NCBI GenBank assembly: GCA_903879715.1
Contig: CAIRMR010000032.1
Location: forward strand, 11,022-75,021
Length of the DNA: 64,000 nt
Source of the DNA: an uncultured Bacteroidales bacterium
GTDB taxonomy: Bacteria > Bacteroidota > Bacteroidia > Bacteroidales > UBA4417
Direction of reading: 5' to 3'
Part shown: positions 636 through 52,850 of the stretch, one piece after another
Layout: each line of letters starts with the position of its first letter
How positions within the stretch are numbered: position 1 is the first letter of the stretch
Translations under genes and position numbers: made by a program
The notes under the pieces: generated by a model
Database searches by the model: none
What the model was told of the DNA's origin: nothing
Seen by the model: only the letters and a program-made list of their open reading frames with translations

Positions 636-871
636 ACAACTTTAATTGCCTTACGAAAGTAGTGCTTTTTATACAGAGAAGGAAGATTATTGAACTGAGA
701 CCTGGTCGTTCTGATTTTTTCAATCACAATTCACCAATCCGGAATCACAATTCACAAATTAATAATCGTGAATTCGGATTTTTGATTTTTAATTTTCAGA
801 CCTTACTATTCTTCACAAAAAAAATTGTGAGTTTTGATTTGTGATTTGTGAGTTCTGATTTTCAGACCCGA

Positions 872-1789: not shown

Positions 1790-1826
1790 AATATTTCATT
1801 TATCCTTTAACCTGAAAACAAAGTAA

Positions 1827-2477
1827 CTATTTGACTATTGAACATTTATTAAATTTAATATCGGTATCATCATAACCGATACAAACACCCTTAATTTTAA
1901 CTTTTGCGCCAACTACTAATGTGCCCGCTTCTTCATTGTGCTTTTTATACATCTGGCAGGCAATGGTTTTATCACCAAACATTGAGTCAGCCGCCATTAC
2001 AAATATGGCCGATACCAATGTATCATTTTTATCGATACGGCTCAGGTTACCGGTAACTTCAATCACCTGGTTATTGTATAACGAATCGGCTGTTTCCCGG
2101 TCGGTATTGTATTTGCTCCATATTTCTTCGGTCGAAACGGAATAAGCCGGGCTTGCCTTTTCTATATCATCATGGGGTTTATTATACATGTTCTGATATA
2201 TGTATATTGAACTTGTCAGCCCCAAAGCTAAAACGGCAAAAGATAGATATATCCATAACCTGTGTTTTTTAAGCATCATTTGATCTTTACTGTCTGAGAC
2301 AGCCCATACCAAAGCCCCAATCCAACCTAAAATGGTCGTACCTAGTAGAATGTTTACAAGAGCGATTCCATTGATATGTTTGCATTTTCTATAGGATGCA
2401 ATTAAGATGGGAATGATGTAGAGAATCCACAATACTATCATCAATCCTATAAAGTGATTATCGATTAAGTTCTTCAT
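1827..2477 (-). CDS. membrane protein: superinfection-immunity-like (Imm_superinfect) N-terminal TM module fused to a tRNA_anti-like OB-fold domain
   Basis: N-terminus YIIPILIASYRKCKHINGIALVNILLGTTILGWIGALVWAV matches the Imm_superinfect signature. The C-terminus (DSLYNNQVIEVTGNL...KVKIKGVCIGY...IKFNKCSIV) matches the OB-fold tRNA_anti-like pattern. Confidence 0.55.
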   Translation of the reverse strand: MKNLIDNHFIGLMIVLWILYIIPILIASYRKCKHINGIALVNILLGTTILGWIGALVWAVSDSKDQMMLKKHRLWIYLSFAVLALGLTSSIYIYQNMYNKPHDDIEKASPAYSVSTEEIWSKYNTDRETADSLYNNQVIEVTGNLSRIDKNDTLVSAIFVMAADSMFGDKTIACQMYKKHNEEAGTLVVGAKVKIKGVCIGYDDTDIKFNKCSIVK

Positions 2478-2510
2478 AGAGTCCGTTTTTAAAGTAATTT
2501 ATGTTTATTT

Positions 2511-2882
2511 TTAATTGTTTAGCATTCCCTTCCTTATCCAGATCTCAATTTTCGTCAAGTCGCAGGGTGAGAGGCTTCCGCCACCCTGAGGCATTGACAG
2601 AAAACCTGATTGGTGGTTGATAGCTCCTCTGATCCGTGTAATATTGGCTGATACAGACGCATAACTGTCAGTCTGAATATTTCCCGATGCGGTACTTCCA
2701 CTATGGCAGGAGTTACAATAACCTGCAAAAACAGGCGCCACTGATGCAGCGTAAGTTACAGTTGTTGTATCACAGGTGCTGCTTCCAAGGTATAAGTCTT
2801 CTTCATTGTCATAATAACACCCACTGATCGCAAGTGTAAGCGCCAATACAGATACAAGGTGTACTTTTATTTTTGTTTTCAT
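2511..2882 (-). CDS. small c-type haem lipoprotein (PSCyt1-like cytochrome c domain)
   Basis: Lipobox LAISGC, a single CxxCH (CNSCH), a distal Met (LSMPQGG) and a C-terminal ...IEIWIRKG motif. Confidence 0.6.
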   Translation of the reverse strand: MKTKIKVHLVSVLALTLAISGCYYDNEEDLYLGSSTCDTTTVTYAASVAPVFAGYCNSCHSGSTASGNIQTDSYASVSANITRIRGAINHQSGFLSMPQGGGSLSPCDLTKIEIWIRKGMLNN

Positions 2883-2995
2883 TTAAATTAGTTGTTTAGC
2901 ATAGTATTAAAATACATTTATTTAAATATTGTTCAAAGTACTGTCACAAATTGTATTTGGAACAGTTAATCCCACATGGAAAATAACGCAATGAG

Positions 2996-3379
2996 TTATG
3001 GACAGGTAGTATGAGTCGCGCCTTGCAAGATCCAGATGCTTATAATATCAATCTGTGAACTGGAAAGTGCTGATTTTGGTTTGGGAGGCATTAACCCCTC
3101 CAGGTTTGAATGTGCTGTAATCACTTTATGAAGCTCGCTTTGCATTGGCTTGCCTGCGGTTACATAGCTGTAAACATCCTCATACGTAGAAAGAGAAGGC
3201 CCCTCACCACTTCCGTGGCAACCGGGTACATTGCAATTCGAATTAATAATACCCATAACTTCCTGGTCGAAACAAACAATGGGTGTGCCTGGCGGGAGTT
3301 CCGGTTCATGTTTGCAGGAAGTAAGATAAATGCTTAAAAGTGTCAATCCTGCCAATGAAATAATTATTCGTGTTTTCAT
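2996..3379 (-). CDS. small c-type haem lipoprotein (PSCyt1-like cytochrome c domain)
   Basis: Lipobox YLTSC, a single CxxCH (CNVPGCH), a distal Met (GLMPPKP) and a C-terminal IISIWILQGA motif. Paralogue of 2511..2882 and 6353..6727. Confidence 0.6.
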   Translation of the reverse strand: MKTRIIISLAGLTLLSIYLTSCKHEPELPPGTPIVCFDQEVMGIINSNCNVPGCHGSGEGPSLSTYEDVYSYVTAGKPMQSELHKVITAHSNLEGLMPPKPKSALSSSQIDIISIWILQGATHTTCP

Positions 3380-3653
3380 TTATAAAAAAATTAAAAGGAA
3401 GATTTCCTGTGAAGAGAGTTTACAGGTATTAAAGGCTTTTCATAACTCCTACTGAGGCATTTTTAACCTAATGCAAATTTACGGGCTTTTTAACCTTCAA
3501 TTTGTGATTTATGTCACACCCACCTATTTATATTTATTCTAAACGATATGAAATGAGAAAAATTGTTAAATGCATAATGCCAGTTAAACAATTACCAATT
3601 TTGTGCGACAAATCATGTAATTTTGAAATTCAATTTTAATTCATCAGTAATCT

Positions 3654-5264
3654 ATGAAATTAGCCAAATATTCCCTGATAGGATTCTTTCTGCTCTTAAT
3701 AAGCATAAGTGTTTCAGCTCAATCAAAACAAAAGCCGGTTGATCCTAAGGCAACAACAATGAAGTTCAACACCCTGATGCAGCTAATAAACTATTATTAT
3801 GTCGAAGATGTTGATCAGCCAAAGTTAACCGAAGAAGCTATTGTAGCGGTTCTGAAAGAACTTGACCCGCATTCCGTATATATTTCAAAGGATGAAGTTG
3901 AAAAAACCAATGAGCCATTGGTCGGAAACTTTGATGGAGTTGGTATTCAGTTTCAGATATATAAGGATACAATTTTAGTTATTTCACCAGTTCCCGGTGG
4001 GCCTTCCGATAAATTGGGTATCCTGGCAGGAGATAAAATTATCAAAATCAACCGCGAAGATGCTTTTGGCAAAAAACTGACTACCCAATTCGTACTCGAC
4101 CACCTGCGTGGTCCAAGAGGAACGAAAGTAGATGTTGCCATTTACCGCAAAGGACATAAAGAACTGATTGACTATACCATAACACGGGACAAGATACCAC
4201 TCAACAGCATCGATGCTTCCTATATGCTTACCGACAATATAGGATATATAAAACTTTCGCGTTTTGCAGCCACTTCGACAGATGAATTTGTTGACGCTGC
4301 CAATGCATTAAAAAAGCAGGGGATGAAAAACCTCATTTTTGATCTTCGAGGAAATTCTGGTGGATATCTGAATATAGCCTTTGATCTGGCCGATCAGTTT
4401 TTACCTGCTGGTAAACTTGTAGTATATACCAAAGGTGTACGTAGCCCTAAACAGGATTTTATTGCCACCTCTAGCGGTACATTCGAAACAGGCAAACTGG
4501 TAGTCCTGATTGATGAAGGTTCAGCGTCAGCTTCTGAAATTGTTTCAGGCGCTGTGCAGGATTGGGATCGCGGGCTGATTATCGGAAGGCGGTCATTTGG
4601 GAAAGGCCTGGTTCAGCGGCCTTATATGCTTCCCGATAGCTCAATGGTTCGTATTACAACAGCACGTTATTATACTCCCTCGGGCCGTTGTATCCAAAAA
4701 TCATATGCTGATGGCGAAGAAGCATATGGTGATGACCTGTATAAACGCTTAAAACATGGTGAGATGTACCATGCCGATAGTATTAAATTTCCTGATTCAC
4801 TGAGGTATTTCACCCAGAATAAACGTGTTGTTTACGGAGGTGGTGGAATTATGCCCGACTACTTTATTCCTATGGATACTGCATTTGCGTCGAAATATTA
4901 TACCGATGTTTTTCGCAAATCGCTGTTGAACGAATTTACAGTTCAATATATTGAGACAAGGCGTAAAGACCTTCTCAAAACATATCCTGATATACAGGCA
5001 TTTAAAAAAGGATTTACCAATGATCAGAAATTGCTGGATGAATTTGTAGCTTTTGCTGAATCTAAAGATTTACCGCGCAACGATAAGGATCTGGAGGCAT
5101 CAGGGCTACAAATCAAAACAGTTCTGAAAGCATTGATTGCCCGGAATTTGTTTAACATGAATGCCTATTTCCAAATGATCAGTGCTACTGATGACGAATT
5201 GAAACAGGCTATAGAAGTAATTAAGAATGACTCGTTATTCCAAAAATTATCACAGGGTAAGTGA
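3654..5264 (+). CDS. S41 family C-terminal processing (tail-specific) peptidase with PDZ domain
   Basis: Signal peptide. PDZ-like segment (GVGIQF...PGGPSDKLGILAGDKIIKIN). S41 core (DLRGNSGGYL...LIDEGSASASEIVSGA...GRRSFGKG). Confidence 0.85.
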   Translation: MKLAKYSLIGFFLLLISISVSAQSKQKPVDPKATTMKFNTLMQLINYYYVEDVDQPKLTEEAIVAVLKELDPHSVYISKDEVEKTNEPLVGNFDGVGIQFQIYKDTILVISPVPGGPSDKLGILAGDKIIKINREDAFGKKLTTQFVLDHLRGPRGTKVDVAIYRKGHKELIDYTITRDKIPLNSIDASYMLTDNIGYIKLSRFAATSTDEFVDAANALKKQGMKNLIFDLRGNSGGYLNIAFDLADQFLPAGKLVVYTKGVRSPKQDFIATSSGTFETGKLVVLIDEGSASASEIVSGAVQDWDRGLIIGRRSFGKGLVQRPYMLPDSSMVRITTARYYTPSGRCIQKSYADGEEAYGDDLYKRLKHGEMYHADSIKFPDSLRYFTQNKRVVYGGGGIMPDYFIPMDTAFASKYYTDVFRKSLLNEFTVQYIETRRKDLLKTYPDIQAFKKGFTNDQKLLDEFVAFAESKDLPRNDKDLEASGLQIKTVLKALIARNLFNMNAYFQMISATDDELKQAIEVIKNDSLFQKLSQGK

Positions 5265-5309
5265 TAAGGTGTAAGGTGTAAGTGATAAGTTGAACACATA
5301 CATTTTAAA

Positions 5310-5351
5310 ACATTAAGCCCGGGCACTTGACATAGTACCCGGGCTTAATGT
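5310..5351. terminator. bidirectional intrinsic terminator between convergent ctp-like and fnr-like genes
   Basis: ACATTAAGCCCGGG-loop-CCCGGGCTTAATGT hairpin flanked by A/T runs on both sides. Confidence 0.6.
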
Positions 5352-5373
5352 TTAAAATAAAAATTGAAAGGCG

Positions 5374-6072
5374 CTATCCTGTTTGACTGATCTTACTAAG
5401 ATGTTCAGTATTTAAAATTTCGAAATCGTTTCCATTTACCTGAATAATCCCTTCGTCTTTAAACTCCCTGAGGATACGGATAGCACTTTCCTTCGACATA
5501 CCCGACATATCAGCTAAATCCTGCCTCGAAAGCGAAGTGCGAAAAGAATTGGATCCGTAAACTTTATCTTTCAGGTATAGTAAAACATCGGCAATCCGTC
5601 CTGGCATCTGCTTCTGAGTAAGACTAATGAAAAGTTCATAGTTATAAATGGATTGCAAACTAATTTTTTTCAGAAAATCTTCAGCAAAATCAGGATTATT
5701 CCGGATGAGAGACTTAAACGTAACCAGATCGACAAGGCATGCAACTGAATCTTCGATAGCCATAGCCGAAAAGTGATGCATCTGGTCAGCATAAATACCA
5801 GGTCCCAGAATGTATTCCACAGGTTTAACAACACTCAGGATAAGATTTTTATCATTAAAGCCTTCAATATAAGTTTTAACTTTCCCTTGGGTTAAACACA
5901 GGAAATGCATATTGGGAGTACCTTGTTTAAAGATAAGTTCACCCGCTTTAAAATGCACTTCAATGCGTTTTTCATCAATCTGGTCAAGTTCAGTCTGGCA
6001 AAGACAACTGAAAATATCGGCTTTATCCTTACAGGCTGAACATCCTTTGCTATATTGAGTATATTGGTTCAC
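5374..6072 (-). CDS. Crp/Fnr family transcriptional regulator with N-terminal Cys cluster (FNR-like, putative O2/redox sensor)
   Basis: N-terminal GCSACKDKADIFSCLC, a cNMP-binding beta-roll and a C-terminal HTH (SRQDLADMSGMSKESAIRILREF). Confidence 0.8.
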   Translation of the reverse strand: MNQYTQYSKGCSACKDKADIFSCLCQTELDQIDEKRIEVHFKAGELIFKQGTPNMHFLCLTQGKVKTYIEGFNDKNLILSVVKPVEYILGPGIYADQMHHFSAMAIEDSVACLVDLVTFKSLIRNNPDFAEDFLKKISLQSIYNYELFISLTQKQMPGRIADVLLYLKDKVYGSNSFRTSLSRQDLADMSGMSKESAIRILREFKDEGIIQVNGNDFEILNTEHLSKISQTG

Positions 6073-6188
6073 AGATTTTAGTTTTTAGTTCACTAGAAGG
6101 AAAATATTTTATCCAATCTGGTTTTTAACAAATGATTCTTAATCCTTCTATTCGCGTACAAAGATAATGACATATATCAATATATCGG

Positions 6189-6202
6189 TTGATAAGTATC
6201 AA
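6189..6202. promoter_or_regulatory. perfect FNR/CRP-type box TTGAT-N4-ATCAA
   Basis: TTGATAAGTATCAA read directly in the divergent intergenic region between the fnr-like gene (start 6072) and the cytochrome operon (start 6353). Confidence 0.5.
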
Positions 6203-6352
6203 AATAATAGTGTCAAACAATCATATTTAATTTATGCACTATTTCAGGATAAAAGTATTCCTTTGTAGCATTCAAATAATTACAGAAGCTTTGTTAAATT
6301 TATAACAAGAAGCCTGTCTCAAAATCTAAAACAACAAACAAATATCTAACCA

Positions 6353-6727
6353 ATGAAAAAGAGATTTCTCCGATTATTATTCCTGTCAGGCACATTGATC
6401 GCCCTGCTGACAGCCTGCGAATATGATTATAATGTACCCGTACCTCCTACTCCTGTACCACCGGCAAACGATGATATAAGTTACTCGCAGGATATTCAGC
6501 CAATCTTTGATGCTAAATGTATTAGTTGCCATGCAGGTAGTACTGCACCAAACCTTTTAACCGGCCAATCATATTCTGCCCTTGCCACATTTGTTGTCGC
6601 AGGAAGTCCTGAAACCAGTGAACTATATATCTCATGCAAACCCGGCGGAAGCATGGCTGTACATACATCGGCTGCTAATTTGAATCTCATTTATCGCTGG
6701 ATTTATGCAGGTGCTAAAAACGACTAA
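6353..6727 (+). CDS. small c-type haem lipoprotein (PSCyt1-like cytochrome c domain)
   Basis: Lipobox LLTAC, CxxCH (CISCH), a distal Met (GGSMAV) and a C-terminal IYRWIYAGA motif. Confidence 0.6.
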   Translation: MKKRFLRLLFLSGTLIALLTACEYDYNVPVPPTPVPPANDDISYSQDIQPIFDAKCISCHAGSTAPNLLTGQSYSALATFVVAGSPETSELYISCKPGGSMAVHTSAANLNLIYRWIYAGAKND

Positions 6728-6758
6728 ATTGACCTATAATCAATAAAAAAGAAAAATA

Positions 6759-7712
6759 ATGAAAAAGATTTATAAAACACTAAAATTTAGCGCTTTAACG
6801 CTTTTTACTCTGATTGCAGCACAGTCAGCAACATTTGCTCAGGAAGAAGCTACAGCAGACACTACTGTTCAGGAAAAACCTATTGACAAACCTGTAAGGC
6901 CGGCATTCGAAAACGCTTTGTTGTTCGACGCTGCAACAACCACATTTTATCCTTCTAAATCTCTTGAATTTGTGCTGCAGCATCGTTTTGGTGTAATTGA
7001 CACTAAAGATAACAATTATGATATGGCAGGTATTTGGGGATCAGCAAACATCCGTTTTGGATTAAATTACAGCATACTGAACAGCTTAATGGTTGGAGTT
7101 GGAACAACCAAATTCAATAAAATGACAGATTTTCAACTTAAGTACCGGGTTATTGAGCAAACCCGCTCAAACAGTATCCCGGTTACTGTAGCGCTTTATG
7201 AAGTTATTGGAATTGACGGGAGCCCGGATGCAAAATGGGATGGCACTCCTGATTCTGTAACTACAAAAGGCTACAAATTCGGTAACAGGATGTCGTACTT
7301 CACACAATTGATCGTTTCGCGCAGGTTCAACGATAAGCTTTCTTTACAAGTTGGCGGGGCATTTACACATTACAGTTGTGTAGATTCAGTATACAGCCAC
7401 GACAGGGTTTCTGTATCTTTTGCAGGAAGATATAAATTCTCTCCTCAGATGTCACTCATCGTTTCCGGCGACTTTCCTCTGGACATAAAAGCTATCAAAG
7501 ATTACAAGATAGTGAAAAGCAATACCATTATTTACGATAAACCCAGTCTTAATGCCGGTCTTGAAATAGCAACCAGTTCCCACGCTTTTCATGTATACGT
7601 GGCTTCTGCTCAGGGCATCATTCCTCAGGAATGCATCATGTGGAATAAAAATGATTTCTTCCATGGCGGCATACTTATAGGACTGAACATTACGCGCCTT
7701 TGGAATTTTTAA
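6759..7712 (+). CDS. outer-membrane beta-barrel protein (DUF5777-like), paralogue of 872..1789
   Basis: Signal peptide ending TFAQ, an HRFG block, and a beta-strand pattern ending ...GLNITRLWNF (C-terminal Phe). Confidence 0.55.
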   Translation: MKKIYKTLKFSALTLFTLIAAQSATFAQEEATADTTVQEKPIDKPVRPAFENALLFDAATTTFYPSKSLEFVLQHRFGVIDTKDNNYDMAGIWGSANIRFGLNYSILNSLMVGVGTTKFNKMTDFQLKYRVIEQTRSNSIPVTVALYEVIGIDGSPDAKWDGTPDSVTTKGYKFGNRMSYFTQLIVSRRFNDKLSLQVGGAFTHYSCVDSVYSHDRVSVSFAGRYKFSPQMSLIVSGDFPLDIKAIKDYKIVKSNTIIYDKPSLNAGLEIATSSHAFHVYVASAQGIIPQECIMWNKNDFFHGGILIGLNITRLWNF

Positions 7713-7778
7713 AAGACAAACCTTTTATTTGGAATACTTATTGCATCAAAACAGATATAACTACTAAAAAAAAACAAA

Positions 7779-8195
7779 ATGAAAAATTCAATTAAACTTA
7801 TCGTAATTATTTGCACTGCTATTGTTTTTGTTACAGCCAATATGGCTATGGCACAAAAAGCTGGCGGTCCATGGACAATCCCGGCAACCTACAAAAACAT
7901 GAAAAGCACTGTAAAAGCCGGTGATGCTTCAATCAACACGATTGGAAAAGAAAACTTCAACAAACATTGCAAATCATGCCATGGAGCCAAAGGTTTGGGT
8001 GATGGTCCAAAAGCCGCCAACCTGAAAACAAGCACAGGTAACTTCTCACTTGCTGCATTCCAGGCCAGAACTGATGGTGAACTTTATTACATGTCGTTTA
8101 TCGGCCGCGACGAAATGCCTAATTTCGAAAAGAAAATTTTAGACGTTGCTGACAGATGGGCTGTTATTGGCTACATCCGTACTATGAAAAAATAA
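7779..8195 (+). CDS. class I c-type cytochrome (monohaem, periplasmic)
   Basis: Signal peptide, CKSCHGAKGLGDG and a distal Met in DEMPNF. Confidence 0.75.
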   Translation: MKNSIKLIVIICTAIVFVTANMAMAQKAGGPWTIPATYKNMKSTVKAGDASINTIGKENFNKHCKSCHGAKGLGDGPKAANLKTSTGNFSLAAFQARTDGELYYMSFIGRDEMPNFEKKILDVADRWAVIGYIRTMKK

Positions 8196-8209
8196 TTTGA
8201 TTGTAGATA

Positions 8210-8252
8210 AAGGGTGTTCAGGATAAAATCAGAACACCCTTTATTTTTTTTT
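8210..8252 (+). terminator. intrinsic terminator/attenuator inside the cytochrome gene string
   Basis: AAGGGTGTTC-12 nt loop-GAACACCCTT followed by TATTTTTTTTTT. Confidence 0.6.
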
Positions 8253-8292
8253 GCCTGAAAAATCCCTGTTCTACTAATTTTTTCAAAAAAAA

Positions 8293-9276
8293 ATGACTTC
8301 ACTTTTCACTCAATATTTCCGGAAAGTTCCTGTTGCTTTTATTTTGACATTCTTCTTTTTTCCAATGATGTCAATCACATTAAAAGCTCAAAACAAACCC
8401 AAAGATGAAACAATTAAAATCAACGAAAATTGCCTGAAATGCCACGGGCAATCCAAGTATAAATATAATAATCCGGAATCAGGTACCGAAGTAACCAAGA
8501 GGATGTACCTCGAAACCATTATAAACCGTACCGAATTTTACGAATCAAACCATAAAACATTTAAATGTACAGATTGCCATTCTGCGGATTATGATACTTT
8601 CCCACATCCGGGACGTTTACGGATGGAATCGAAATATGCCTGTATCGACTGCCACGGCGGAGATGAAGCATATGCCAAATTTAAATTTGAAGAAATTGAG
8701 ACTGAATTCCAGTCGAGTGTGCATTCAACCAAGCACAGCGATGATTTTAACTGCTGGATGTGTCACAATCCTCATACCTATAAAATCAACGCCCGTTCGG
8801 ATGAAAAAATCAGAGATATTGTGGCTTACGACAACGCTATTTGCCTGAATTGCCACGCCGATATTACCAAGTACCAGATGCTCACGGATAAAGTGAATCC
8901 CAATATCCTCCAAAAACATGAATGGTTACCTAACCAGGCGCTGCATTTCAAAAATGTCCGTTGTATCGAGTGCCATGCCCGAACCAACGATTCAATCCTG
9001 GTAGCTCATAATATTCAGCCAAAATCTAAAGCTGTAAGAAGGTGCGTTGAATGTCATTCAACCAACTCAATCCTGATGGCTTCACTCTATAAATACAAAG
9101 TGCAGGAAGGACGAAGTAAAACAGGATTTTATAACGGAGTTATTATGAACGAAGGCTATGTTATTGGTGCCAACCGTAATTATTACCTTGGATTAATAAG
9201 TTTAATCATGTTCGGCTGCGTAGCATTTGGTATAGCAATTCATGCAACACTCAGAATTATAAAACGTAAGAAATAA
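8293..9276 (+). CDS. heptahaem c-type cytochrome with C-terminal transmembrane anchor
   Basis: Seven CxxCH motifs counted (CLKCH, CTDCH, CIDCH, CWMCH, CLNCH, CIECH, CVECH). N-terminal signal/anchor and a C-terminal hydrophobic helix (LGLISLIMFGCVAFGIAIHATL). Confidence 0.8.
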   Translation: MTSLFTQYFRKVPVAFILTFFFFPMMSITLKAQNKPKDETIKINENCLKCHGQSKYKYNNPESGTEVTKRMYLETIINRTEFYESNHKTFKCTDCHSADYDTFPHPGRLRMESKYACIDCHGGDEAYAKFKFEEIETEFQSSVHSTKHSDDFNCWMCHNPHTYKINARSDEKIRDIVAYDNAICLNCHADITKYQMLTDKVNPNILQKHEWLPNQALHFKNVRCIECHARTNDSILVAHNIQPKSKAVRRCVECHSTNSILMASLYKYKVQEGRSKTGFYNGVIMNEGYVIGANRNYYLGLISLIMFGCVAFGIAIHATLRIIKRKK

Positions 9277-9893
9277 TGTCACAAAAAATATATCTATATC
9301 CCGTGTGGATCAGGCTCTGGCATGCCTTAAATGCCATTCTTATCATCCTCCTGATCATCAGCGGTGTAAGTATGCAATATACAAATCCGGCTAACCCGTT
9401 TATCAGGTTCGATATTGCTGTTACCATGCATAATATCAGCGGAATGATACTTACTGCTAATTATATGGTATTTCTGATCGGAACTTTTATCACTCCAAAC
9501 GGAAAATATTACAAATTATCGTTGAACGGCTTATTTGCCAGGCTGATAAAACAGTTTACGTATTACACATTTGGTATTTTCAAACACGAAAGACCTCCAT
9601 TCCCTGTTACAAAAGAAAGCAAATTCAATCCTTTACAACAGTTTACCTATGTAATTGCCATGTTTATTCTGGTTCCTATTGTAATAATAACCGGTTGGGC
9701 ATTACTATATCCTGAAGTTGTGTTAACTAAATTTTTTCTTGGCAGTGGAATAAAAGTAAATGACTTTATCCATGTTATAATTGGATTCTTTGTATCCTTT
9801 TTTATGTTTGTTCATATTTATTTCTGCACCATAGGAGCAACTTTTGTAAGTAATTTTAAGAGCATGATCAATGGCTTTCACGAATCACACTGA
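9276..9893 (+). CDS. b-type cytochrome membrane subunit (Ni/Fe-hydrogenase/FdnI/PhsC-like cytochrome b)
   Basis: About 4 TM helices with conserved His (WHALNA, MHNISG, IHVIIG...FVHIYF). Its start overlaps the upstream stop (TAATG). Confidence 0.65.
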   Translation: MSQKIYLYPVWIRLWHALNAILIILLIISGVSMQYTNPANPFIRFDIAVTMHNISGMILTANYMVFLIGTFITPNGKYYKLSLNGLFARLIKQFTYYTFGIFKHERPPFPVTKESKFNPLQQFTYVIAMFILVPIVIITGWALLYPEVVLTKFFLGSGIKVNDFIHVIIGFFVSFFMFVHIYFCTIGATFVSNFKSMINGFHESH

Positions 9894-9972
9894 AATCTGA
9901 CGGTTTGCTGAAAAGCTTACTGTTCGGAATTGATCGAAACTTTCTCATCACTTAACATTAAAATGGCTTACC

Positions 9973-10935
9973 ATGGAAAATAAAAAGAAAGATGACAACA
10001 ACTCACGGAGAAATTTCCTGAAACTGGGTTTGTTGGCTGGTGCCGGTACTGTTGCAACAGGAGCATTGATTGCAACCGGGAAAAATACAGGTGAATCAGG
10101 CGAAAAGATAAAAGTACTAACCACTTCAGGTGAAGTGATGGAAGTAGATAAAAATTTCCTGACGCTTGCGCCGGTTGGCCGTGTAGAATCCCATGAAGGT
10201 ATTCCCGGTCGTAAGTTCGTTATGGTAATTGACCTGGCTAAATGTAAAAATGCACGTAAGTGTGTTGAAGAGTGCCAGAAAGGACACAACCTCCCAAAAG
10301 ACCAGGAGTTTATGAAGGTTTACCTGATGCAGGATTCAGAAAAAACTGCTCCTTATTGGTTTCCAAAACCATGCTACCATTGCGATAATCCCCAATGTGT
10401 AAGTGTTTGCCCGGTAGGTGCAACCTACAAGCGCAGCGACGGTATCGTTCTTATCGATAACGAACGTTGTATTGGATGTAAATTCTGCATGACTGGCTGC
10501 CCGTATTCAACACGTGTATTTTCCTGGAAAGCAGAAGAAGCATATGAGTCGGATCAACCATATTCACCAGAAAAAAGTGTACCAGGTGTTGAAGGAACGG
10601 TCTCCAAATGCGATTTCTGTCCTGACCTGGCCCGCGAAGGGAAGTTACCATATTGTGCATCAGCTTGTCCGATGGGAGTAATCTATTTTGGCGACATTGA
10701 CGAAGATGTAGTAACCAACGGAACCGAAACTTTTAAATTCAGCGAACTGATCCGCGACCGTTCCGGCTACAAATACCTTGATAACCTTGGAACCCGTCCG
10801 AATGTATATTATCTCCCACCTGTCGACAGGCAATTCCCGTTCGAACGAGGACTTGATGGCCTGGATGAGGAAGTCACCAAGAGATTTGAAAATACCCCCT
10901 ATGTAAAAAATCTTAAAAATAAGGAGACCCTGTAA
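9973..10935 (+). CDS. Tat-exported 4Fe-4S ferredoxin-type subunit (NrfC/PsrB/HmcB/DsrO-like)
   Basis: Twin-arginine signal SRRNFLKLGLLAGAG. Cys clusters CYHCDNPQCVSVCP, CIGCKFCMTGCP and CDFCPD...CASACP. Confidence 0.8.
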   Translation: MENKKKDDNNSRRNFLKLGLLAGAGTVATGALIATGKNTGESGEKIKVLTTSGEVMEVDKNFLTLAPVGRVESHEGIPGRKFVMVIDLAKCKNARKCVEECQKGHNLPKDQEFMKVYLMQDSEKTAPYWFPKPCYHCDNPQCVSVCPVGATYKRSDGIVLIDNERCIGCKFCMTGCPYSTRVFSWKAEEAYESDQPYSPEKSVPGVEGTVSKCDFCPDLAREGKLPYCASACPMGVIYFGDIDEDVVTNGTETFKFSELIRDRSGYKYLDNLGTRPNVYYLPPVDRQFPFERGLDGLDEEVTKRFENTPYVKNLKNKETL

Positions 10936-12260
10936 TGAGCGATACGGCTAGTTCTAATATTTTACTCCGGGAATTTGCACCTCAGATTGAACGCACCGGA
11001 ACACTGGGCAAACTGTGGATAACATTTCTTATTGGTGTTGTTCTGTTAGGTTTTTTCGCCCTTTACTGGCAGGTTTCGCGCGGGCATATTGTTACCGGTA
11101 TGCGCGATAACGTGGTATGGGGTGTTTATATCGTAAACTTCATCTTTTTCATGGGTATCAGTTATGCGGGTGCACTTATTTCAGGAGCACTGCATCTTTT
11201 TCATGCTGAATGGAGGAAACCTATTATCCGGATGGCTGAATTCATCACCATCATCTCACTTTTAATAGGCCCCGGCTTTATCATGATGTGTATCGGCCGC
11301 CTCGACCGTCTTCCGAATCTTATTCTCTTCGGGCGTATTCAGTCGCCAATCACCTGGGACGTTATTGCTATATCAACTGATATTTTCGGATGTATACTTT
11401 TCCTGTACCTGGCACTTTTACGCGATTTGGCTAAACTGCGCGATTTTGACGAACTGAAAGTTCCGAATTGGAAGAAAAAAATGTACAAAATTCTTGCCAT
11501 TGGTTATACAGGAACACCCGAACAGCAATTGCGGTTGAAAAAATCAACGGATATTATGGCAGGTATGGTTATTGCCATTGCAATTATAGTATACTCTGTA
11601 CTTGCGTGGATTTTCAGTGTAACCTTACAGCCAGGCTGGCATAGCACCATCTTCGGACCGTATTTCGTAATTGCTGCTGTATATTCCGGTACCGGTGTAC
11701 TTATCGTGGCCATGTATTTTTTCAGAAAAGTGTACCATCTGGAAGAGCATATTACGTTAAAACACTTTGTGAATATTGGAGTTATCATGTTGGTTCTAGC
11801 TGCTTTCTTTGGTTATTTTACCTTCAGCGAATACCTTACAAAATGGTATGGTTCGGAAAAAAATGACGAACAACTCATAGCCATCCTGTTCAAGGATTAT
11901 TACTCCCTGTTTATCCTTTCCAATTATATTGGTGTGCTGGTTCCACTGATTGTTGTAGGTTTCAAGAAACTACGCACAATCAATAACATTACTATAGCAG
12001 CATTCATTGTAATTATTGCTTTATGGCTGAACCGCTACCTTATTGTAGTGCCAACACTCGAATCACCTTATCTTCCTATCCAGGAGTCACGTGATGCATG
12101 GGCACATTATTCAGCCACATGGGTTGAATGGTCGCTCACAGCAGGTGGTGTTGCACTCTTCTGTCTGCTTTTCACCCTGGCTTCAAAAATGATACCCATC
12201 GTTCAGGTTTCTGATCTCAAGGAAGAACCTAAAGAAGCGGGTGACATTTACCTGAGGTAA
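10935..12260 (+). CDS. NrfD/PsrC-family polytopic quinone-interacting membrane subunit
   Basis: 441-aa protein with multiple TM helices directly after the NrfC-like gene. Start overlaps the upstream stop (TAATG). N-terminal WITFLIGVVLLGFFALYWQ...VVWGVYIVNFIFFMGISYAGALISG pattern is typical of NrfD-like proteins. Confidence 0.7.
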   Translation: MSDTASSNILLREFAPQIERTGTLGKLWITFLIGVVLLGFFALYWQVSRGHIVTGMRDNVVWGVYIVNFIFFMGISYAGALISGALHLFHAEWRKPIIRMAEFITIISLLIGPGFIMMCIGRLDRLPNLILFGRIQSPITWDVIAISTDIFGCILFLYLALLRDLAKLRDFDELKVPNWKKKMYKILAIGYTGTPEQQLRLKKSTDIMAGMVIAIAIIVYSVLAWIFSVTLQPGWHSTIFGPYFVIAAVYSGTGVLIVAMYFFRKVYHLEEHITLKHFVNIGVIMLVLAAFFGYFTFSEYLTKWYGSEKNDEQLIAILFKDYYSLFILSNYIGVLVPLIVVGFKKLRTINNITIAAFIVIIALWLNRYLIVVPTLESPYLPIQESRDAWAHYSATWVEWSLTAGGVALFCLLFTLASKMIPIVQVSDLKEEPKEAGDIYLR

Positions 12261-12306
12261 CAGAATTACAATAAGTTAATTAGTAAACAGGATAAAAAGA
12301 TTTTTT

Positions 12307-13209
12307 ATGAAAAGGATAAAAACAGGAATCATACTTGTCATCTTATTTCTGGCAGGAATGATGCAGGGATTTGCCCAGAATAATGCTGATACCACCAGCC
12401 CGGCAGTCACAGTGTTAAGATTTGCCTGTGTCAGTACTTCTGACGACAGTATACAGTTAAAAAGTGTTGTTAGTGTTAAACACGACGATGGAAGTACTAA
12501 CCTGGTTAACGCGCCGGTTATTTTTTACTCTGTTGAGAAAGATGGCGATCTGAAGATTGGCGAGGTAAAAACTGATGTTCATGGTACTGCGGTTCTCAAA
12601 ATTCCTGCCCGTAACACATACCTGCGCAACGATCAGCAGATGCTTTCATTCAAAGCAATGTATGATGGAAATAACAAATACGAAGCTTCAGAAGGTGAAT
12701 TTAGCCTTAAACCGGCAAAACTGGTAGTTTCATTTTATGAAGAAGATTCCATCCGGTATGTGAAAGTTGAAGGAACCCAGCTTAACAGCGATGGCACTGA
12801 AGTATCAATCGGAGCGGTTGATGTAATTGTATCAGTCCCTAAAATGTTCAGCATGCTTAAAATTGCTGAAATATCTCTTGATTCAACCGGTGTTGGTACA
12901 GCTGAATTTCCCCGCGACATTATTGGTGATTCAACCGGGAATCTCACCGTTGTTGCCTCTATTGAGGAAAATGATATTTTCGGAACGGTTCAAGGATCAT
13001 CAGATAAAAACTGGGGATTGCATAAACACCTGATTAGTCCGGATCGTCCTTCGCGGGAATTGTGGACACCCATAGCTCCACTCTGGATGATTATAACACT
13101 TATCGTAATGCTTTTGGGTGTTTGGGGACATTATGTATATGCGGTTGTACAATTGGTTATGATCAGCAAATCTTCAAAAACACTTCCGGCAGAAAATAGC
13201 AAAAAATGA
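12307..13209 (+). CDS. hypothetical secreted Ig-like/beta-sandwich protein with C-terminal TM anchor
   Basis: Signal peptide, beta-rich repeats (HGTAVLKIPA...), and a C-terminal helix LWMIITLIVMLLGVWGHYVYAVV. Last gene of the operon. Confidence 0.5.
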   Translation: MKRIKTGIILVILFLAGMMQGFAQNNADTTSPAVTVLRFACVSTSDDSIQLKSVVSVKHDDGSTNLVNAPVIFYSVEKDGDLKIGEVKTDVHGTAVLKIPARNTYLRNDQQMLSFKAMYDGNNKYEASEGEFSLKPAKLVVSFYEEDSIRYVKVEGTQLNSDGTEVSIGAVDVIVSVPKMFSMLKIAEISLDSTGVGTAEFPRDIIGDSTGNLTVVASIEENDIFGTVQGSSDKNWGLHKHLISPDRPSRELWTPIAPLWMIITLIVMLLGVWGHYVYAVVQLVMISKSSKTLPAENSKK

Positions 13210-13267
13210 AATTGATCTAAATTATCAGTTGATCAACAAAGACTTGAGAATACCATAAAGTCGAATT

Positions 13268-13310
13268 AAAAGCAAAAGCCACTTTCTAAAATAGTGGCTT
13301 TTGCTTTTTC
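13268..13310 (+). terminator. intrinsic terminator ending the cytochrome/NrfCD operon
   Basis: AAAAGCAAAAGCCACT-loop-AGTGGCTTTTGCTTTT followed by T. Confidence 0.75.
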
Positions 13311-13383
13311 CTGAACTTAATTTTTGATTATTTTCCCTGAGTGGGTAAAACCAGGAATTAACGACAATTTTTAATTACATGCT

Positions 13384-13839: not shown

Positions 13840-14655
13840 TTATTCAATCTTTCCAACCGTAAACACATCAAACCCATTCTCTTTAGCCATCTGCATTGCC
13901 GGTTGATTCTGCATGATGGCTCCGCCCCAAAAATTATGATCATAGCTATGCGGGCTTATAAACCAGCTATCGATATTCATAACGATTTCAATATTACACG
14001 TTTTATTCTCTTCCACAGTAATTGCTGAATTGGGCAGCTTAACGCTGAAATAATTCTGTACAAAAGCATAAATGGAATCCACTTCTATCACATTGCTTTT
14101 GTACAACTGACCGATTCCCATGTGAAAAGCATAGCTCATAATCACATTTTCATTATTCTTCCAGCTTCCGTTAATCATCATGTAGTGATACCCGCCGCCT
14201 AAAATATCAGGCCACATCATATTCACTTCGGGCGGATTAACAAACCGGAACGATTGGTTTTTCTCTTTCGTGATCCCGAACACAAAAGAAATAGAGTCGT
14301 AGACTCCTGTGTCAATATCATCGTACACATCCCAGGTAAGTGTTGAAGGTATATCAATATCCACGTAATGAATATCGGTCCAGTCGCTGATCAGTTTAGT
14401 TGTTCCATCGGCTTTATGAAGAGTAACATCTGATATAAAATACATAATCTGGTTTATCTCATACGGATTTCCGGCAGCGTTTACATATTTCATAATATCC
14501 TTTTCCAGCGGCAATCCATCCACCAGGTGTATAAAACTTAATGAAATATGCCCTGTCGGTTTACCGTCATCAGGGGTATCGTTATTACATGATATATCCA
14601 GGAACAATAAAGTTCCCAGTAGTATCGAAACAAACAAGGCATATTTCATTTTCAT
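13840..14655 (-). CDS. lipoprotein of unknown function next to a TonB-dependent receptor (possibly MbnP-like metal-binding protein)
   Basis: Lipobox FLDISC and a beta-rich sequence. The MbnP assignment is a memory-based guess. Two in-frame ATGs exist (14655 and 14649). Confidence 0.55.
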   Translation of the reverse strand: MKMKYALFVSILLGTLLFLDISCNNDTPDDGKPTGHISLSFIHLVDGLPLEKDIMKYVNAAGNPYEINQIMYFISDVTLHKADGTTKLISDWTDIHYVDIDIPSTLTWDVYDDIDTGVYDSISFVFGITKEKNQSFRFVNPPEVNMMWPDILGGGYHYMMINGSWKNNENVIMSYAFHMGIGQLYKSNVIEVDSIYAFVQNYFSVKLPNSAITVEENKTCNIEIVMNIDSWFISPHSYDHNFWGGAIMQNQPAMQMAKENGFDVFTVGKIE

Positions 14656-14918
14656 GTGTTATTATTTATTAATTCATTGCTTATTTTCAGCGGTATTAAT
14701 GCTTGCTTCGCAGGTATTTTTAACGGGTCACATGGAACTCCATGACAAAATAATATCATCCGCCTGTGAGTCAAAATTGACTGATTTTGTCATGTTCGTT
14801 TCATGTGTTTATTTTTTAATTTTTTACGGGTCACATGGAACTCGCCATGGAAATAATCATCGCTCTGTGAGACAAATTATTGGCATGGCTCGTTTCATAT
14901 GGTGGTTTTTACGGGTCA
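14650..14918 (+). repeat. hairpin mosaic repeat, locus A: long unit 14650-14807, variant unit 14799-14901, truncated unit 14902-14918
   Basis: Near-identical to 46324-46469 and 62925-63184. Units are bounded by TTTCATNTG. Core hairpin is CACATGGAAC..CATGACAAAAT-loop-ATTTTGTCATG..CATGTG. Confidence 0.85.
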
Positions 14919-17039
14919 GATTGATAGATTAAGATTTACAAAAAGCACTCTGCCCGGTTCATATAATTTTTTATTTTCAGGTGAGCCAATAATTTTCCGG
15001 TTCAGATGTTCGTAGTACGAAACATCAAAGATATTATTTACTCCGGCATTAATGTTAATATTCTTACTAAGCTTGTACGCTACCGAAAAATTCATAATCG
15101 AGAATCCCGGTGTTTCAGGCTCATCAAAAGCATCTGATACATGATGCTGTGCAGCTACTAAACGATACGAGACCCTTGGAATAAGTTTGCCATGCAACAA
15201 ACGATAATTTACACTAAGAGTGGTTTCGAATGGAGGTATTTCAGGCAAAGCATCGTTTTTTATTACGATATCGCCAGGAACAACCTGACCAGCTATAAAA
15301 ATGTGTTTAGTTTCCGAAGGAATCTGCCCATAGGTAAGTGCTGCTATCACATTTACGCCAAGTTTATAAGCCTGCGGAGATGTATAGCCCAGCTCGAAAC
15401 CCGTAAAAGTTGCGTTATCAACATTTACGAACTGCTTCACCCCCAGCACTCCAAGAGTTGCAGGCATAATAACCGACGAAGGAAGCATTACAGCTGAAAT
15501 GTAATCCTTCACATACGAATAAAAACCATTTACATACATGGTTCCTAATTTCTTATCAGAGTATGTTAGTGTCAAATCAACTTCGTAGTTTGTCTCCGGT
15601 TTAAGTTGTGGATTACCCAGGTAATCGTAATTATCGTACCCTATGGTGAGTCGTTTAATGTAACGTTCCAGCATATTCGGGCTTCGCGTGCCGCGGGCAA
15701 AAGCTAAAGACACAGAAAGTTTTTCGGTAATTTTACGCGTTAATCCAAGGTTAGCGCTCAGGTTTACAAACTGCGAAGCGGTTTCATTAAAATATTCCAC
15801 ACCGTCTTTAATCAATACCAGGGTATCTTCCGAATCAGCCTTATTAAAATCAACCCGTATGGCTGCATCAAATTTGAATGAATTAAAACTGGTAGTATAA
15901 CCGGCAAACAAGCCCGCATTCCGGATTAAAGCCTTATTCCATAAATTGAATCTAGTGGTCGAAGTAGTTCCCATCATCAGCATAGTCATAGTTCGTACAC
16001 CATCCTTGTAAATATTTTCAAAATCTATACCTGCTGATAAATTCTGATTCTTTATTTTCATGCCCAGGATAGCCTTTCCTCCTGTATTTATAGCATTTAC
16101 ATCAGCAACCATCTGTTTGGCTGACCAGGTAATGCGGTTGCTGTTATCCATCAGGTGGTTAACATTGGTTCTGTAAACCTTAACATCCAGTGTTTTTATT
16201 ACTTCCGAAATATTCCTGGCCGAATAGTCCAAAGACATCATGCGTGTATCATCGCTTTTTTCGTCCATAGTGAGCGCCGGAAACATCACATCCCTGCCAT
16301 GCGACTCGCTGTATGAAAGCAAAACATTCTGCTTCGGGGAAATAGCCCATCCTGCTTTGGCCCCATAATTATACTTTGTAAATGATGTATTATAGGTCGT
16401 TGTTTCACCATCAGTCTTTCCGCTGCTGTAATCGCCATACTTACGATATCCGCCCGATGCGCGGAAATACACTTTACTATTCCCGCCATAAAGCGAGAAA
16501 TATTCCTTGGCCCCATCCCAATTGGTTTCATAGCCAAACATAGCATTTCCATGAATTTCAAATTTCGCGTACGGATGCGGATCTTCAGTCTGCAGATTGA
16601 TTACTCCGCCCAAAGCCGGTCCATAATTCAAAAGGAAAGGTCCTTTCACAAGATTAATCTGTGAAAGCTCTTCTACTTCCACATGTGCCGCAACCGGATC
16701 CATGCGGTTAGGACAGCCGTTTTCGATCTTCATACCGCCATCCATAACGACGTTTAGCTGGCTGAATTTGAAACCGCGAATAACAGGATCAATGGCACCG
16801 CCACCTTTTCGAATACCGGATACGTTAGGAATACTACGCAGGTAGTCCCCCACATCGCGGGTTGAAACTGACTGCATAATTTCTTTTGAAACCTGAGTTG
16901 TTACAAAGGGAGTTCGTTTTAAAAGAGTATCGGTAATTACAACACCCCCAAGCACTATTGTATCGCTAAGATGTTGTGCCCTGATTCCCGCCGCAAACAA
17001 CAGGAAAAAGCTTATGAACAGGTAAATTTTCTTTTTCAT
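14916..17039 (-). CDS. TonB-dependent outer-membrane receptor
   Basis: Signal peptide, plug domain (DTIVLGGVVIT...RGF...), and a long beta-barrel. 707 aa. Confidence 0.85.
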   Translation of the reverse strand: MKKKIYLFISFFLLFAAGIRAQHLSDTIVLGGVVITDTLLKRTPFVTTQVSKEIMQSVSTRDVGDYLRSIPNVSGIRKGGGAIDPVIRGFKFSQLNVVMDGGMKIENGCPNRMDPVAAHVEVEELSQINLVKGPFLLNYGPALGGVINLQTEDPHPYAKFEIHGNAMFGYETNWDGAKEYFSLYGGNSKVYFRASGGYRKYGDYSSGKTDGETTTYNTSFTKYNYGAKAGWAISPKQNVLLSYSESHGRDVMFPALTMDEKSDDTRMMSLDYSARNISEVIKTLDVKVYRTNVNHLMDNSNRITWSAKQMVADVNAINTGGKAILGMKIKNQNLSAGIDFENIYKDGVRTMTMLMMGTTSTTRFNLWNKALIRNAGLFAGYTTSFNSFKFDAAIRVDFNKADSEDTLVLIKDGVEYFNETASQFVNLSANLGLTRKITEKLSVSLAFARGTRSPNMLERYIKRLTIGYDNYDYLGNPQLKPETNYEVDLTLTYSDKKLGTMYVNGFYSYVKDYISAVMLPSSVIMPATLGVLGVKQFVNVDNATFTGFELGYTSPQAYKLGVNVIAALTYGQIPSETKHIFIAGQVVPGDIVIKNDALPEIPPFETTLSVNYRLLHGKLIPRVSYRLVAAQHHVSDAFDEPETPGFSIMNFSVAYKLSKNININAGVNNIFDVSYYEHLNRKIIGSPENKKLYEPGRVLFVNLNLSI

Positions 17040-51789: not shown

Positions 51790-51861
51790 AGTGTTGTTGT
51801 TAATTTGTATGTAAAATTATTCATTAATGAACACAATTATCCTTTTATTTAAAAGTTTTTA

Positions 51862-52581: not shown

Positions 52582-52740
52582 GTTTTTTGAGGGGTTAGGT
52601 TTTTGGGGTTAGGGATTAGGATTTAGTTTCTTTTGAGATCAAGTGTTCAAATGCTTCGCGTTTAAGGGTTCAATGCTGCGCGTTCAAGGGTTCCAGGTTT
52701 CGGAGATCTATTGCAACTTTTAATCACTTTAAACAGTTTT

Positions 52741-52846
52741 GAACAATCTTGAACAACGTTGAACTATTTAGAACAATATTGAACAACTTTGAACAACATT
52801 GAACAACTTTTAACAACATTGAACAACTTTTAACAATTTTGAACTT
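52741..52846. repeat. about 11 tandem copies of a 10-bp unit (GAACAACNTT)
   Basis: gaacaatctt gaacaacgtt gaactattta gaacaatatt gaacaacttt gaacaacatt gaacaacttt taacaacatt gaacaacttt taacaatttt gaac. Confidence 0.85.
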
Positions 52847-52850
52847 TTAC

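Follow-up and report, generated by a model that had tools for sequence, protein, structure and literature searches.

Extracellular electron transfer is, to our knowledge, understood mechanistically almost only in Geobacter and Shewanella. In G. sulfurreducens the menaquinol oxidase CbcBA (Cbc5; GSU0593/GSU0594) is needed genetically for low-potential extracellular electron transfer, near -0.2 V, with the cell switching among ImcH, CbcL and CbcBA according to potential (bioRxiv 10.1101/2021.04.15.440034). CbcA is a seven-haem cytochrome with a C-terminal transmembrane (TM) anchor, from which one His probably ligates a b haem; its partner CbcB, usually annotated 'thiosulfate reductase-like', is a dihaem cytochrome b of four TM helices; and homologous clusters have been noted in Bacteroidetes such as Prolixibacter, Marinilabiliales and Labilibaculum (bioRxiv 10.1101/2021.04.15.440034). 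Here an operon of eight genes is described from an uncultured Bacteroidales bacterium (GTDB UBA4417), lying on a stretch of 64,000 nt hereafter called the window (GCA_903879715.1, contig CAIRMR010000032.1, forward-strand positions 11,022-75,021). What is new in this operon is the joining of a CbcBA-family module to an uncharacterised outer-membrane unit and to an optional ActC/DsrP-like cassette of NrfC, NrfD and a third protein; CbcBA itself has already been published, and a literature search found no paper on the operon in Bacteroidota. Judged from its genes, there is about an even chance that the operon encodes an anoxia-induced chain leading from menaquinol to the cell surface with no catalytic enzyme.

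The eight co-directional open reading frames (ORFs) lie on the + strand at 6353-13209, where the original prediction, made by reading the window, had placed them, and are called g1 to g8 in 5' to 3' order, with g6, g7 and g8 forming the cassette (Table 1). The gaps from g1 to g8 are 31, 66, 97, -1, 79, -1 and 46 bp, with TAATG stop/start overlaps read at 9274-9278 (g4/g5) and 10933-10937 (g6/g7). The terminator that ends the operon was not reported by the terminator pattern scan, whose loop limit of 3-8 nt it probably exceeds. The predicted layout was confirmed throughout, including both overlaps, the terminator and the seven CxxCH motifs of g4. Profile searches of each ORF against Pfam and NCBIfam, together with topology prediction, also upheld the product types proposed for g1 to g7, namely a haem lipoprotein, a barrel, a class I cytochrome c, a heptahaem cytochrome, a 4-TM cytochrome b, a twin-arginine (Tat)-exported iron-sulfur (FeS) protein and an NrfD protein.

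Relatives were collected by a degenerate-pattern scan of one genome per species, in which a g4 relative was confirmed at 255 places. The best 80 were kept as loci and inspected over ~20 kb with 10-kb flanks, the eight proteins being mapped onto them and all neighbouring ORFs clustered; counts are given over the 68 loci with enough upstream DNA or the 69 with enough downstream DNA. All 80 are Bacteroidales metagenome-assembled genomes (MAGs; Lentimicrobiaceae, Prolixibacteraceae, Draconibacterium and unclassified), and many of their isolate names point to stratified, iron-rich or humic lakes and groundwater. The operon is widespread in Bacteroidales of anoxic habitats. The order g1-g2-(g3)-g4-g5 is conserved across the 80 loci, g4 and g5 being found in all of them, g2 in 66/68 and g3 in 56/68, with g1 upstream of g4 in 61/68, and the conserved core consists of the haem lipoprotein, the DUF5777 barrel, the optional cytochrome c, CbcA and CbcB. 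The scanned neighbouring families of these loci included no known catalytic subunit (no molybdopterin subunit, NrfA or MccA). Likewise, the ~35 ORFs scanned, from 60-odd of at least 120 amino acids (aa) in the window, held no molybdopterin subunit, NrfA, ActB-size or QrcB-like protein. The original prediction of an operon with no catalytic subunit has thus stood up both among the scanned ORFs of the window and in the related loci; conservation of the gene order across Bacteroidota had been proposed as a check.

A CbcA/CbcB pair at the core of the operon

The strongest likeness to a described system lies in g4 and g5. Across 68 homologues of g4 all seven CxxCH motifs, seven further distal His and His317 of the TM anchor are invariant, and the seven distal His are enough for bis-His ligation at every haem; the haem motifs are thus kept among relatives, as the original prediction required. 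In g5, His16, His52, His166 and His180 are invariant across phyla, and the best NCBIfam model is PhsC at 178.6 bits, below its cut-off of 204. Searching with a profile built from distant relatives of g5 brought up a cytochrome b from Oryzomonas japonica (Geobacteraceae), in whose locus a divergent sigma-54 response regulator is followed by two small ORFs, a 351-aa cytochrome with seven CxxCH, the cytochrome b and further cytochromes, which is the layout of the published cbc5 operon. g5 aligns with this cytochrome b over its full length at 33% identity (E 4e-35). Between g4 and the Oryzomonas seven-haem protein the identity is 28% (E 3e-16); six of the haem motifs fall in register, and the two share a C-terminal G-x-x-R...H-x-T-L-R...RK within the TM helix. 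The sole relative of g4 in the PDB is 28pb_A, a recently deposited chain of 278 aa named 'Cytochrome c'. Since the Oryzomonas CbcA matches 28pb_A at 416 bits, the chain is a CbcA-type soluble domain, and as a close homologue of the periplasmic part of Geobacteraceae CbcA it now supplies the g4 family with a template; g5 had no PDB match. On these alignments, the shared motifs and the 28pb_A match, g4 and g5 are members of the CbcAB family and, judged at the level of sequence, true homologues of Geobacteraceae CbcA and CbcB.

The family reaches well beyond Bacteroidales. A full-library search gave 612 clusters (50% identity, E <= 0.001), many of them c-b fusions, and the pair also occurs alone, without DUF5777 or NrfCD, in MAGs of Chlorobi, Deferribacteres and Acidobacteria. 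Look-ups among the 50%-identity representatives returned no named Geobacter CbcB, only names of Aquipluma, Magnetococcales and Thermodesulfobacteriota.

As in CbcBA, a seven-haem cytochrome c with a His-bearing C-terminal TM helix is followed by a HydC/PhsC-like 4-TM cytochrome b, in equal order. Unlike CbcBA, the pair here stands beside a Crp/Fnr regulator instead of one of the sigma-54 BccR type, no sigma-54 activator having been found in the loci, and the operon lacks the two small upstream ORFs and CbcC, CbcD and CbcE. A further difference is that g4 and g5 are flanked by the barrel/haem-lipoprotein pair and the NrfCD cassette, neither of which was seen in the four cbcAB loci of other phyla that were inspected. 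The original prediction had named Geobacter Cbc complexes and the Desulfovibrio Hmc/Nhc complexes as analogues of an undescribed module. For Cbc the comparison was right and turns out to be one of homology, which with the mention of Bacteroidetes clusters in the CbcBA paper makes 'undescribed' an overstatement; for Hmc/Nhc it remains conceptual, the cytochrome b being of HydC/PhsC type with no cytoplasmic HdrD-like partner.

The outer-membrane pair, cytochrome g3 and the optional cassette

In g1 the lipobox Cys22 and the haem motif C56xxC59H60 are conserved among 62 homologues, and weak matches were obtained to the LIC11213-lipoprotein and PccH models (Pfam/NCBIfam). The 66 homologues of g2, and also the paralogous barrel of the window, keep His75, His204 and His275. 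Literature searches on DUF5777 and LIC11213 gave nothing useful. The pair resembles Cyc2, MtrAB and Pcc in that a haem protein is encoded beside an outer-membrane barrel, heading an electron-transfer operon; unlike those systems, g1 and g2 are separate genes and g2 is a small DUF5777 barrel with three conserved His. The likeness to Cyc2 and the porin-cytochrome conduits is one of speculated function only. In g3, C64xxC67H68 and Met113 are conserved in 83 homologues, and extra g3 copies adjoin ImcH-like genes in relatives.

The outer-membrane pair has diverged differently from the rest of the operon. The window is collinear with the closest related locus, L001, from position 4 to 13331, synteny ending just past the terminator, and in this comparison g1/g2 are only 69% identical while the flanking genes are 94-100% and g4-g8 96-100% identical. 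To L015, a locus without g6-g8, g1/g2 are 94% identical, with g4 at 82% and g4-g5 at 82-86%. Divergence of g1/g2 against conserved flanks is the pattern expected of surface-exposed proteins, and the mosaic suggests recombination, exchange or diversifying selection confined to the outer-membrane pair. A paralogous set on the opposite strand of the window holds a second DUF5777 barrel and a second g1-like lipoprotein (Table 1), the barrels being 26% and the small cytochromes 25% identical to the operon copies, with the CxxCH at the matching position. A barrel with a small haem lipoprotein is therefore a recurring unit.

The original prediction treated the NrfC/NrfD proteins as central to the operon, which is not borne out. 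The cassette is present in 46/69 loci and missing from 23/69, both states occur among close relatives (g4 82-90% identity), and in loci without it the next gene follows directly after g5; NrfC, NrfD and g8 are therefore an optional cassette and not part of the core. The three genes always co-occur, in all 46 cassette loci. In g6, 15 invariant Cys fall into three 4-Cys groups and one 3-Cys group, consistent with three [4Fe-4S] clusters and one [3Fe-4S] or atypical cluster. Its nearest PDB chains are PsrB and the C-terminus of ActB, and its best NCBIfam model is DsrO (167.7 bits against a cut-off of 200). For g7 the PDB sequence search matched ActC chains over the full length at 153-187 bits, with 6f0k_C and 6btm_C on top at 184-187, and matched no PsrC- or NrfD-type chains, while the best curated model was DsrP at 85.1 bits against a cut-off of 350. 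ActC, ActF and DsrP make up 'group C' of the NrfD family in the account of Calisto and Pereira (PMC8076601), which also lists the quinone-site and proton-channel residues of ActC. Because ActC chains are its best solved relatives and DsrP its best curated model, g7 would fall in this group. Of the four ActC quinone-site residues two are kept in g7 (S137 and D142), with His139 replaced by C119 and Asp253 by I226, and most residues proposed for the ActC proton half-channels are retained, including the key Arg (R367). g8 had no Pfam, NCBIfam or credible PDB match, the one chain returned from the PDB being a designed repeat protein that aligned over no significant stretch. The conserved parts of g8 are mainly a juxtamembrane PxRELWTPxAPxWM and a TM helix with His275, which suggests a membrane-embedded accessory subunit.

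In its 10-TM g7, its Tat-exported multi-cluster g6 and a haem-c subunit as the likely electron acceptor, the operon resembles alternative complex III (ACIII) and the DsrJOP half of DsrMKJOP. Unlike ACIII, it is without the molybdopterin-like half of ActB, ActA, ActE and ActF, and no ActB fusion (~1000 aa), second NrfD or pentahaem ActA was found in the operon or the scanned parts of the window. Unlike DsrMKJOP, it has no DsrK- or DsrM-type gene, and its DsrO and DsrP scores lie below cut-off; g8 has no detected counterpart in either system. The remaining NCBIfam scores for g6 and g7 against their cut-offs were TtrB 122/416, QrcC 114/400, NrfC 107/378, ArrB 97/450 and QrcD 35/570. By these scores and the absence of partner subunits, the cassette lies outside ACIII, Dsr, Qrc, Psr, Ttr, Arr and Nrf. 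The original prediction of a misfit to Psr, Nrf, ACIII and Qrc is in keeping with this and extends to Dsr, no characterised family with a matching gene set having been found in which the proteins nest. The closest architectural precedents of the cassette are by analogy Cbc4 (CbcSTU) of Geobacter and Nhc (NhcABCD) of Desulfovibrio, for which a role in electron exchange of quinones with periplasmic cytochromes has been proposed. Compared by architecture only, they likewise combine a cytochrome c, a four-cluster FeS protein and a membrane subunit with no catalytic enzyme; unlike them, the cassette contains g8 but not a cytochrome.

Two side observations concern this part of the operon in relatives. 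A different cluster of NrfD (399 aa), Tat FeS protein (244 aa) and small cytochrome lies downstream in some cassette-less loci, and in 29 loci the gene immediately following g8 codes for a short protein with only a riboflavin-kinase domain.

Regulator and neighbouring genes

A Crp/Fnr-family regulator is encoded divergently from the operon, and a homologue adjoins the cluster in 60/80 loci. Its top NCBIfam match is Fnr, below cut-off at 56 against 228; among 59 homologues Cys11, Cys14 and Cys112 never vary and Cys59 is kept in 95%. Oxygen-sensing FNR proteins ligate a [4Fe-4S] cluster through four Cys and have TTGAT-N4-ATCAA as operator. The promoter block upstream of g1 is nearly invariant in 17 aligned sequences and contains three boxes of putative Crp/Fnr type spaced ~22 bp apart, and the flanking intergenic DNA is not alignable. 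The regulator gene and the boxes would fit control of the operon by the Crp/Fnr-family protein, perhaps with induction by anoxia.

The window holds a reduced version of the cluster, which in relatives is enlarged by a 5-6-haem lipoprotein and a quinol oxidase resembling ImcH. An ImcH-like gene lies co-directionally downstream in 32/69 loci; its product, of ~500 aa, has three TM helices at the N-terminus, one CX3CH and six CX2CH motifs and a region resembling NapC/NirT. As published, the ImcH family is defined by a length of about 495-519 aa, three N-terminal TM helices, a CX3CH adjoining them and six CX2CH, and the neighbouring genes of relatives (the first in L001, and those in L013 and L040) agree with it. 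The ImcH-like genes are often present in two copies (Table 1), the second preceded by a g3-like cytochrome c and separated from the first by NmrA/DUF2867 and a 124-aa membrane protein. The 5-6-haem lipoprotein, with a collagen-like Gly-X-Y linker, adjoins g1 in 54/80 loci, usually just upstream. It is a candidate cell-surface cytochrome on its sequence features, with borderline Pfam scores for Cytochrom_C552 (22-24 bits) and the MtrC/MtrF domain (31.8 bits) and no NCBIfam match. An NrfA-type enzyme was considered for this protein and rejected, the Cytochrom_C552 score being borderline only and an NCBIfam match lacking. A CbcL-like fusion of 19 haems and a cytochrome b is present near the cluster in eight loci, in the subgroup without g3 and g6-g8.

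In the window itself the ImcH region is replaced, after position 13331, by genes for an MbnP-family protein and a TonB-dependent receptor, and the same pair stands beside the cluster in the distant locus L080. This recurring neighbour hints at some connection to metal uptake. Outside the operon, the haem-c ORFs of the window are limited to the g1 paralogue and proteins associated with a cbb3 oxidase, whose genes lie ~40 kb from the operon. With this region the host, presumably an anaerobe, is probably able to respire oxygen at trace levels.

Table 1. Positions of the operon, its control region and neighbouring features. Coordinates are those of the window unless a related locus (L number) is named
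Feature	Position	Strand	Basis or remark
Paralogous set, overall	872-3379	-	kept in L001, L002, L013, L015, L034
Paralogous DUF5777 barrel	872-1789	-	Pfam E 1.1e-92
216-aa tRNA_anti-like/Imm_superinfect protein	1827-2477	-	in paralogous set
g1-like monohaem lipoprotein	2511-2882	-	in paralogous set
Cytochrome-like ORF without CxxCH	2996-3379	-	in paralogous set
Crp/Fnr-family regulator, divergent from operon	5374-6072	-	Pfam cNMP_binding and HTH_Crp_2
Conserved promoter block, ~100 bp upstream of g1	6167-6267	+	alignment of window and 16 close relatives
Box1 ATGACatatATCAA	6167-6180	+	palindrome-like
Box2 TTGATaagtATCAA	6189-6202	+	perfect TTGAT-N4-ATCAA in window
Box3 TGTCAaacaATCA	6211-6223	+	palindrome-like
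Promoter-like element, CTATTTCA and AAAAGTATTCCTTTGTA	6239-6246 and 6251-6267	+	conserved in same alignment
g1, monohaem c lipoprotein with Pro-rich linker	6353-6727	+	lipobox LLTAC, one CxxCH
g2, DUF5777 outer-membrane beta-barrel	6759-7712	+	Pfam E 3.6e-64; signal peptide, no TM helix
g3, periplasmic class I cytochrome c (His/Met)	7779-8195	+	Pfam Cytochrom_C
g4, CbcA homologue, heptahaem cytochrome c, C-terminal TM anchor with His317	8293-9276	+	profile, motif, topology
g5, CbcB homologue, 4-TM dihaem cytochrome b	9276-9893	+	Pfam Ni_hydr_CYTB
g6, Tat-exported NrfC/DsrO-like iron-sulfur protein, 320 aa	9973-10935	+	Fer4_11 and twin-arginine signal
g7, NrfD-family quinone-interacting subunit, 441 aa, 10 TM helices	10935-12260	+	profile and topology
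g8, beta-rich periplasmic protein, signal peptide, one C-terminal TM helix	12307-13209	+	topology prediction, conservation
Intrinsic terminator ending operon	13268-13310	+	16-bp perfect stem, then T run
MbnP-family protein	13840-14655	-	in place of ImcH region
TonB-dependent receptor	14916-17039	-	in place of ImcH region
cbb3 oxidase region	51304-60859	-	~40 kb from operon
Small cytochrome c	51304-51789	-	cbb3 region
ccoG/FixG	53506-54921	-	cbb3 region
Monohaem CcoP-like ORF	55051-55683	-	cbb3 region
ccoNO, fused	55918-58059	-	cbb3 region
CcoI-type P-type ATPase	58478-60859	-	cbb3 region
ImcH-like genes	L001 15462-16964, 19834-20982; L013 11914-13416, 16286-17785		two copies
5-6-CxxCH lipoprotein, examples	L055 6302-7801; L032 6462-7793		
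CbcL/MtoC-like fusion, 937 aa, 19 CxxCH	L044 14025-16838		C-terminal cytochrome b domain
Other NrfD/FeS cluster	L040 14962-17368	-	multihaem protein nearby, L040 19490-20902
Other NrfD/FeS cluster	L013 19777-20976; L047 16193-19390		
Riboflavin-kinase-domain-only protein	L055 14908-15408		directly after g8
Receptor/MbnP pair	L080 2782-5964		beside cluster

Direction and end point of electron flow

In the proposed chain the cytochrome b g5 would oxidise menaquinol, and g4, anchored in the membrane, would take up the electrons on its seven bis-His haems. Where the cassette is present, g7 and g6 with g8 as accessory anchor would provide a second quinol oxidiser, related to the ActC/DsrOP branch, whose NrfD subunit is regarded as a proton translocator. 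Both inner-membrane modules would discharge, via the haems of g4, into the periplasmic cytochrome c g3, from which electrons would reach the monohaem lipoprotein g1 paired with the g2 barrel in the outer membrane, and in relatives also the multihaem lipoprotein. The end acceptors would be extracellular or at the surface (Fe(III), Mn(IV), humics or partner cells), and the chain would serve electron disposal in fermenting or anaerobically respiring Bacteroidales. With two quinol oxidases that differ in coupling, the cell would have a counterpart to the way Geobacter changes among ImcH, CbcL and CbcBA according to potential. We infer the union of the parts into one chain, the passage of electrons through g1 and g2 across the outer membrane and the outward flow, and the envelope-spanning route already raised by the original prediction is plausible on the gene assignments.

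A chain ending in the periplasm has to be set against this, unlikely as we judge it. CbcAB and NrfCD would then be a quinol:cytochrome c oxidoreductase replacing ACIII or bc1 and reducing g3, perhaps also g1, for cbb3 or other periplasmic reductases, and the DUF5777 barrel would be a solute channel or serve metal or haem handling instead of conducting electrons. It draws on the closeness of g7 to ActC of ACIII, on the resemblance of g6 to the FeS half of ActB, and on g3, which is of the type that donates to cbb3, with ccoNO, ccoP-like, ccoG and ccoI genes in the window; Fnr-type regulators, moreover, commonly switch on cbb3 genes under micro-oxic conditions, and both here and in L080 the cluster has the TonB receptor/MbnP pair as a neighbour. 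The cbb3 genes are, however, 40 kb away, with no oxidase among the families scanned in the 10-kb flanks of the examined loci, and one third of the loci are without the ACIII-like cassette. g1-g2 also head the operon in almost every locus, and the multihaem lipoproteins, ImcH-like and CbcL-like genes of relatives are characteristic of extracellular electron transfer. Electrons could instead enter the cell, g1/g2 acting as a split Cyc2-like oxidase of Fe(II), a cathode or Fe(0) that feeds g3 and then cbb3 or nitrate-reduction enzymes, and partly running uphill to quinones through CbcAB and NrfCD. We consider this improbable, even though the set of a monohaem outer-membrane cytochrome, a barrel, a His/Met class I cytochrome c and an ActC-like quinone module resembles the Cyc2-Cyc1-ACIII/bc1-cbb3 scheme proposed for neutrophilic iron oxidisers, g3 retains its Met ligand, cbb3 oxidase genes are in the window and the weak match of g1 is to PccH, a Geobacter cytochrome tied to electron uptake. 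The isolate names of many MAGs, suggesting stratified, iron-rich or humic lakes and groundwater, would also suit inward flow, and CbcL-type relatives are known in iron reducers and iron oxidisers alike. ImcH homologues, in contrast, are to date known from Fe(III) reducers alone, and they are neighbours in 32/69 loci; CbcBA is documented as a quinol oxidase (bioRxiv 10.1101/2021.04.15.440034); g2 is without sequence similarity to Cyc2-type porins in the libraries searched; and the hosts are heterotrophic Bacteroidales, Lentimicrobiaceae being typically fermenters, with no obvious need for reverse electron flow.

Very improbable, finally, is the reading of the operon as the anchor and electron-delivery part of a conventional reductase of the Psr, Ttr, Nrf, Mcc or Otr type, the gene for its catalytic subunit lying at another place in the genome. 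NrfC/NrfD pairs do usually serve such enzymes, and the inspection covered 64 kb of the host genome and the 20-kb loci of relatives. Yet a molybdopterin subunit, NrfA, MccA or other known catalytic protein adjoined the cluster in 0/80 loci, g6 and g7 fall under every curated NCBIfam cut-off for such complexes, g7 detects no PsrC- or NrfD-type PDB chain, the cassette is dispensable in one third of loci, and Cbc4 and Nhc offer precedents free of a catalytic subunit.

Several points weigh against the outward chain from menaquinol to the cell surface, chief among them the His/Met type of g3 and the small barrel. His/Met class I cytochromes such as g3 and monohaem proteins such as g1 typify high-potential chains to oxidases or from Fe(II), whereas classical metal-reducing chains rely on low-potential bis-His multihaem proteins. 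By usual barrel sizes a barrel domain of ~250 residues is too narrow to sheathe a folded cytochrome, and in Pfam and NCBIfam g2 showed no homology to Cyc2, MtrB or the Pcc porins, matching DUF5777 only. Within the 64-kb window there is no ImcH-like gene and no 5-6-haem lipoprotein, and a cbb3 oxidase cluster is present, 40 kb off. The AlphaFold2 models are of low confidence, with a predicted local distance difference test score (pLDDT) of 54 for g4 (68 homologues) and 56 for g8 (single sequence), and Foldseek with either model gave nothing at E <= 0.001, so that the Ig-like fold originally proposed for g8 drew no support from its model. The strict E. coli FNR pattern (TTGA-N6-TCAA) occurs in only 2/61 loci and is absent from 59/61, the search failing across loci because, as aligned close relatives show, the first base of the box varies though the whole block is kept; the type of site was therefore taken from the TGA-N6-TCA core and, with the strict consensus so rare across the wider family, anoxic induction is something we infer.

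Although Bacteroidales abound in anoxic lakes, groundwater, digesters and sediments, they are regarded as simple fermenters. The operon, with its 255 places in the species-representative set, would offer a testable route by which they may reduce iron, manganese or humics or take up electrons, and it gives DUF5777 a first candidate role. Loci with and without the NrfCD cassette, NrfCD being probably proton-translocating, amount to a natural experiment on combining two quinol oxidases of different coupling efficiency. It may further be suggested, tentatively and with more doubt than confidence, that the DUF5777 barrel and the monohaem lipoprotein form a minimal and hitherto unrecognised trans-outer-membrane electron conduit of Bacteroidota, a split counterpart of Cyc2 working perhaps via the three barrel His. 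This conduit would be coupled to two interchangeable quinol oxidases of different energetic efficiency, one CbcBA-type and one ActC/DsrP-type NrfCD with g8 as a new subunit, that feed a single heptahaem cytochrome. If this is true, the fermentative Bacteroidales of anoxic waters would gain a tunable extracellular respiration.

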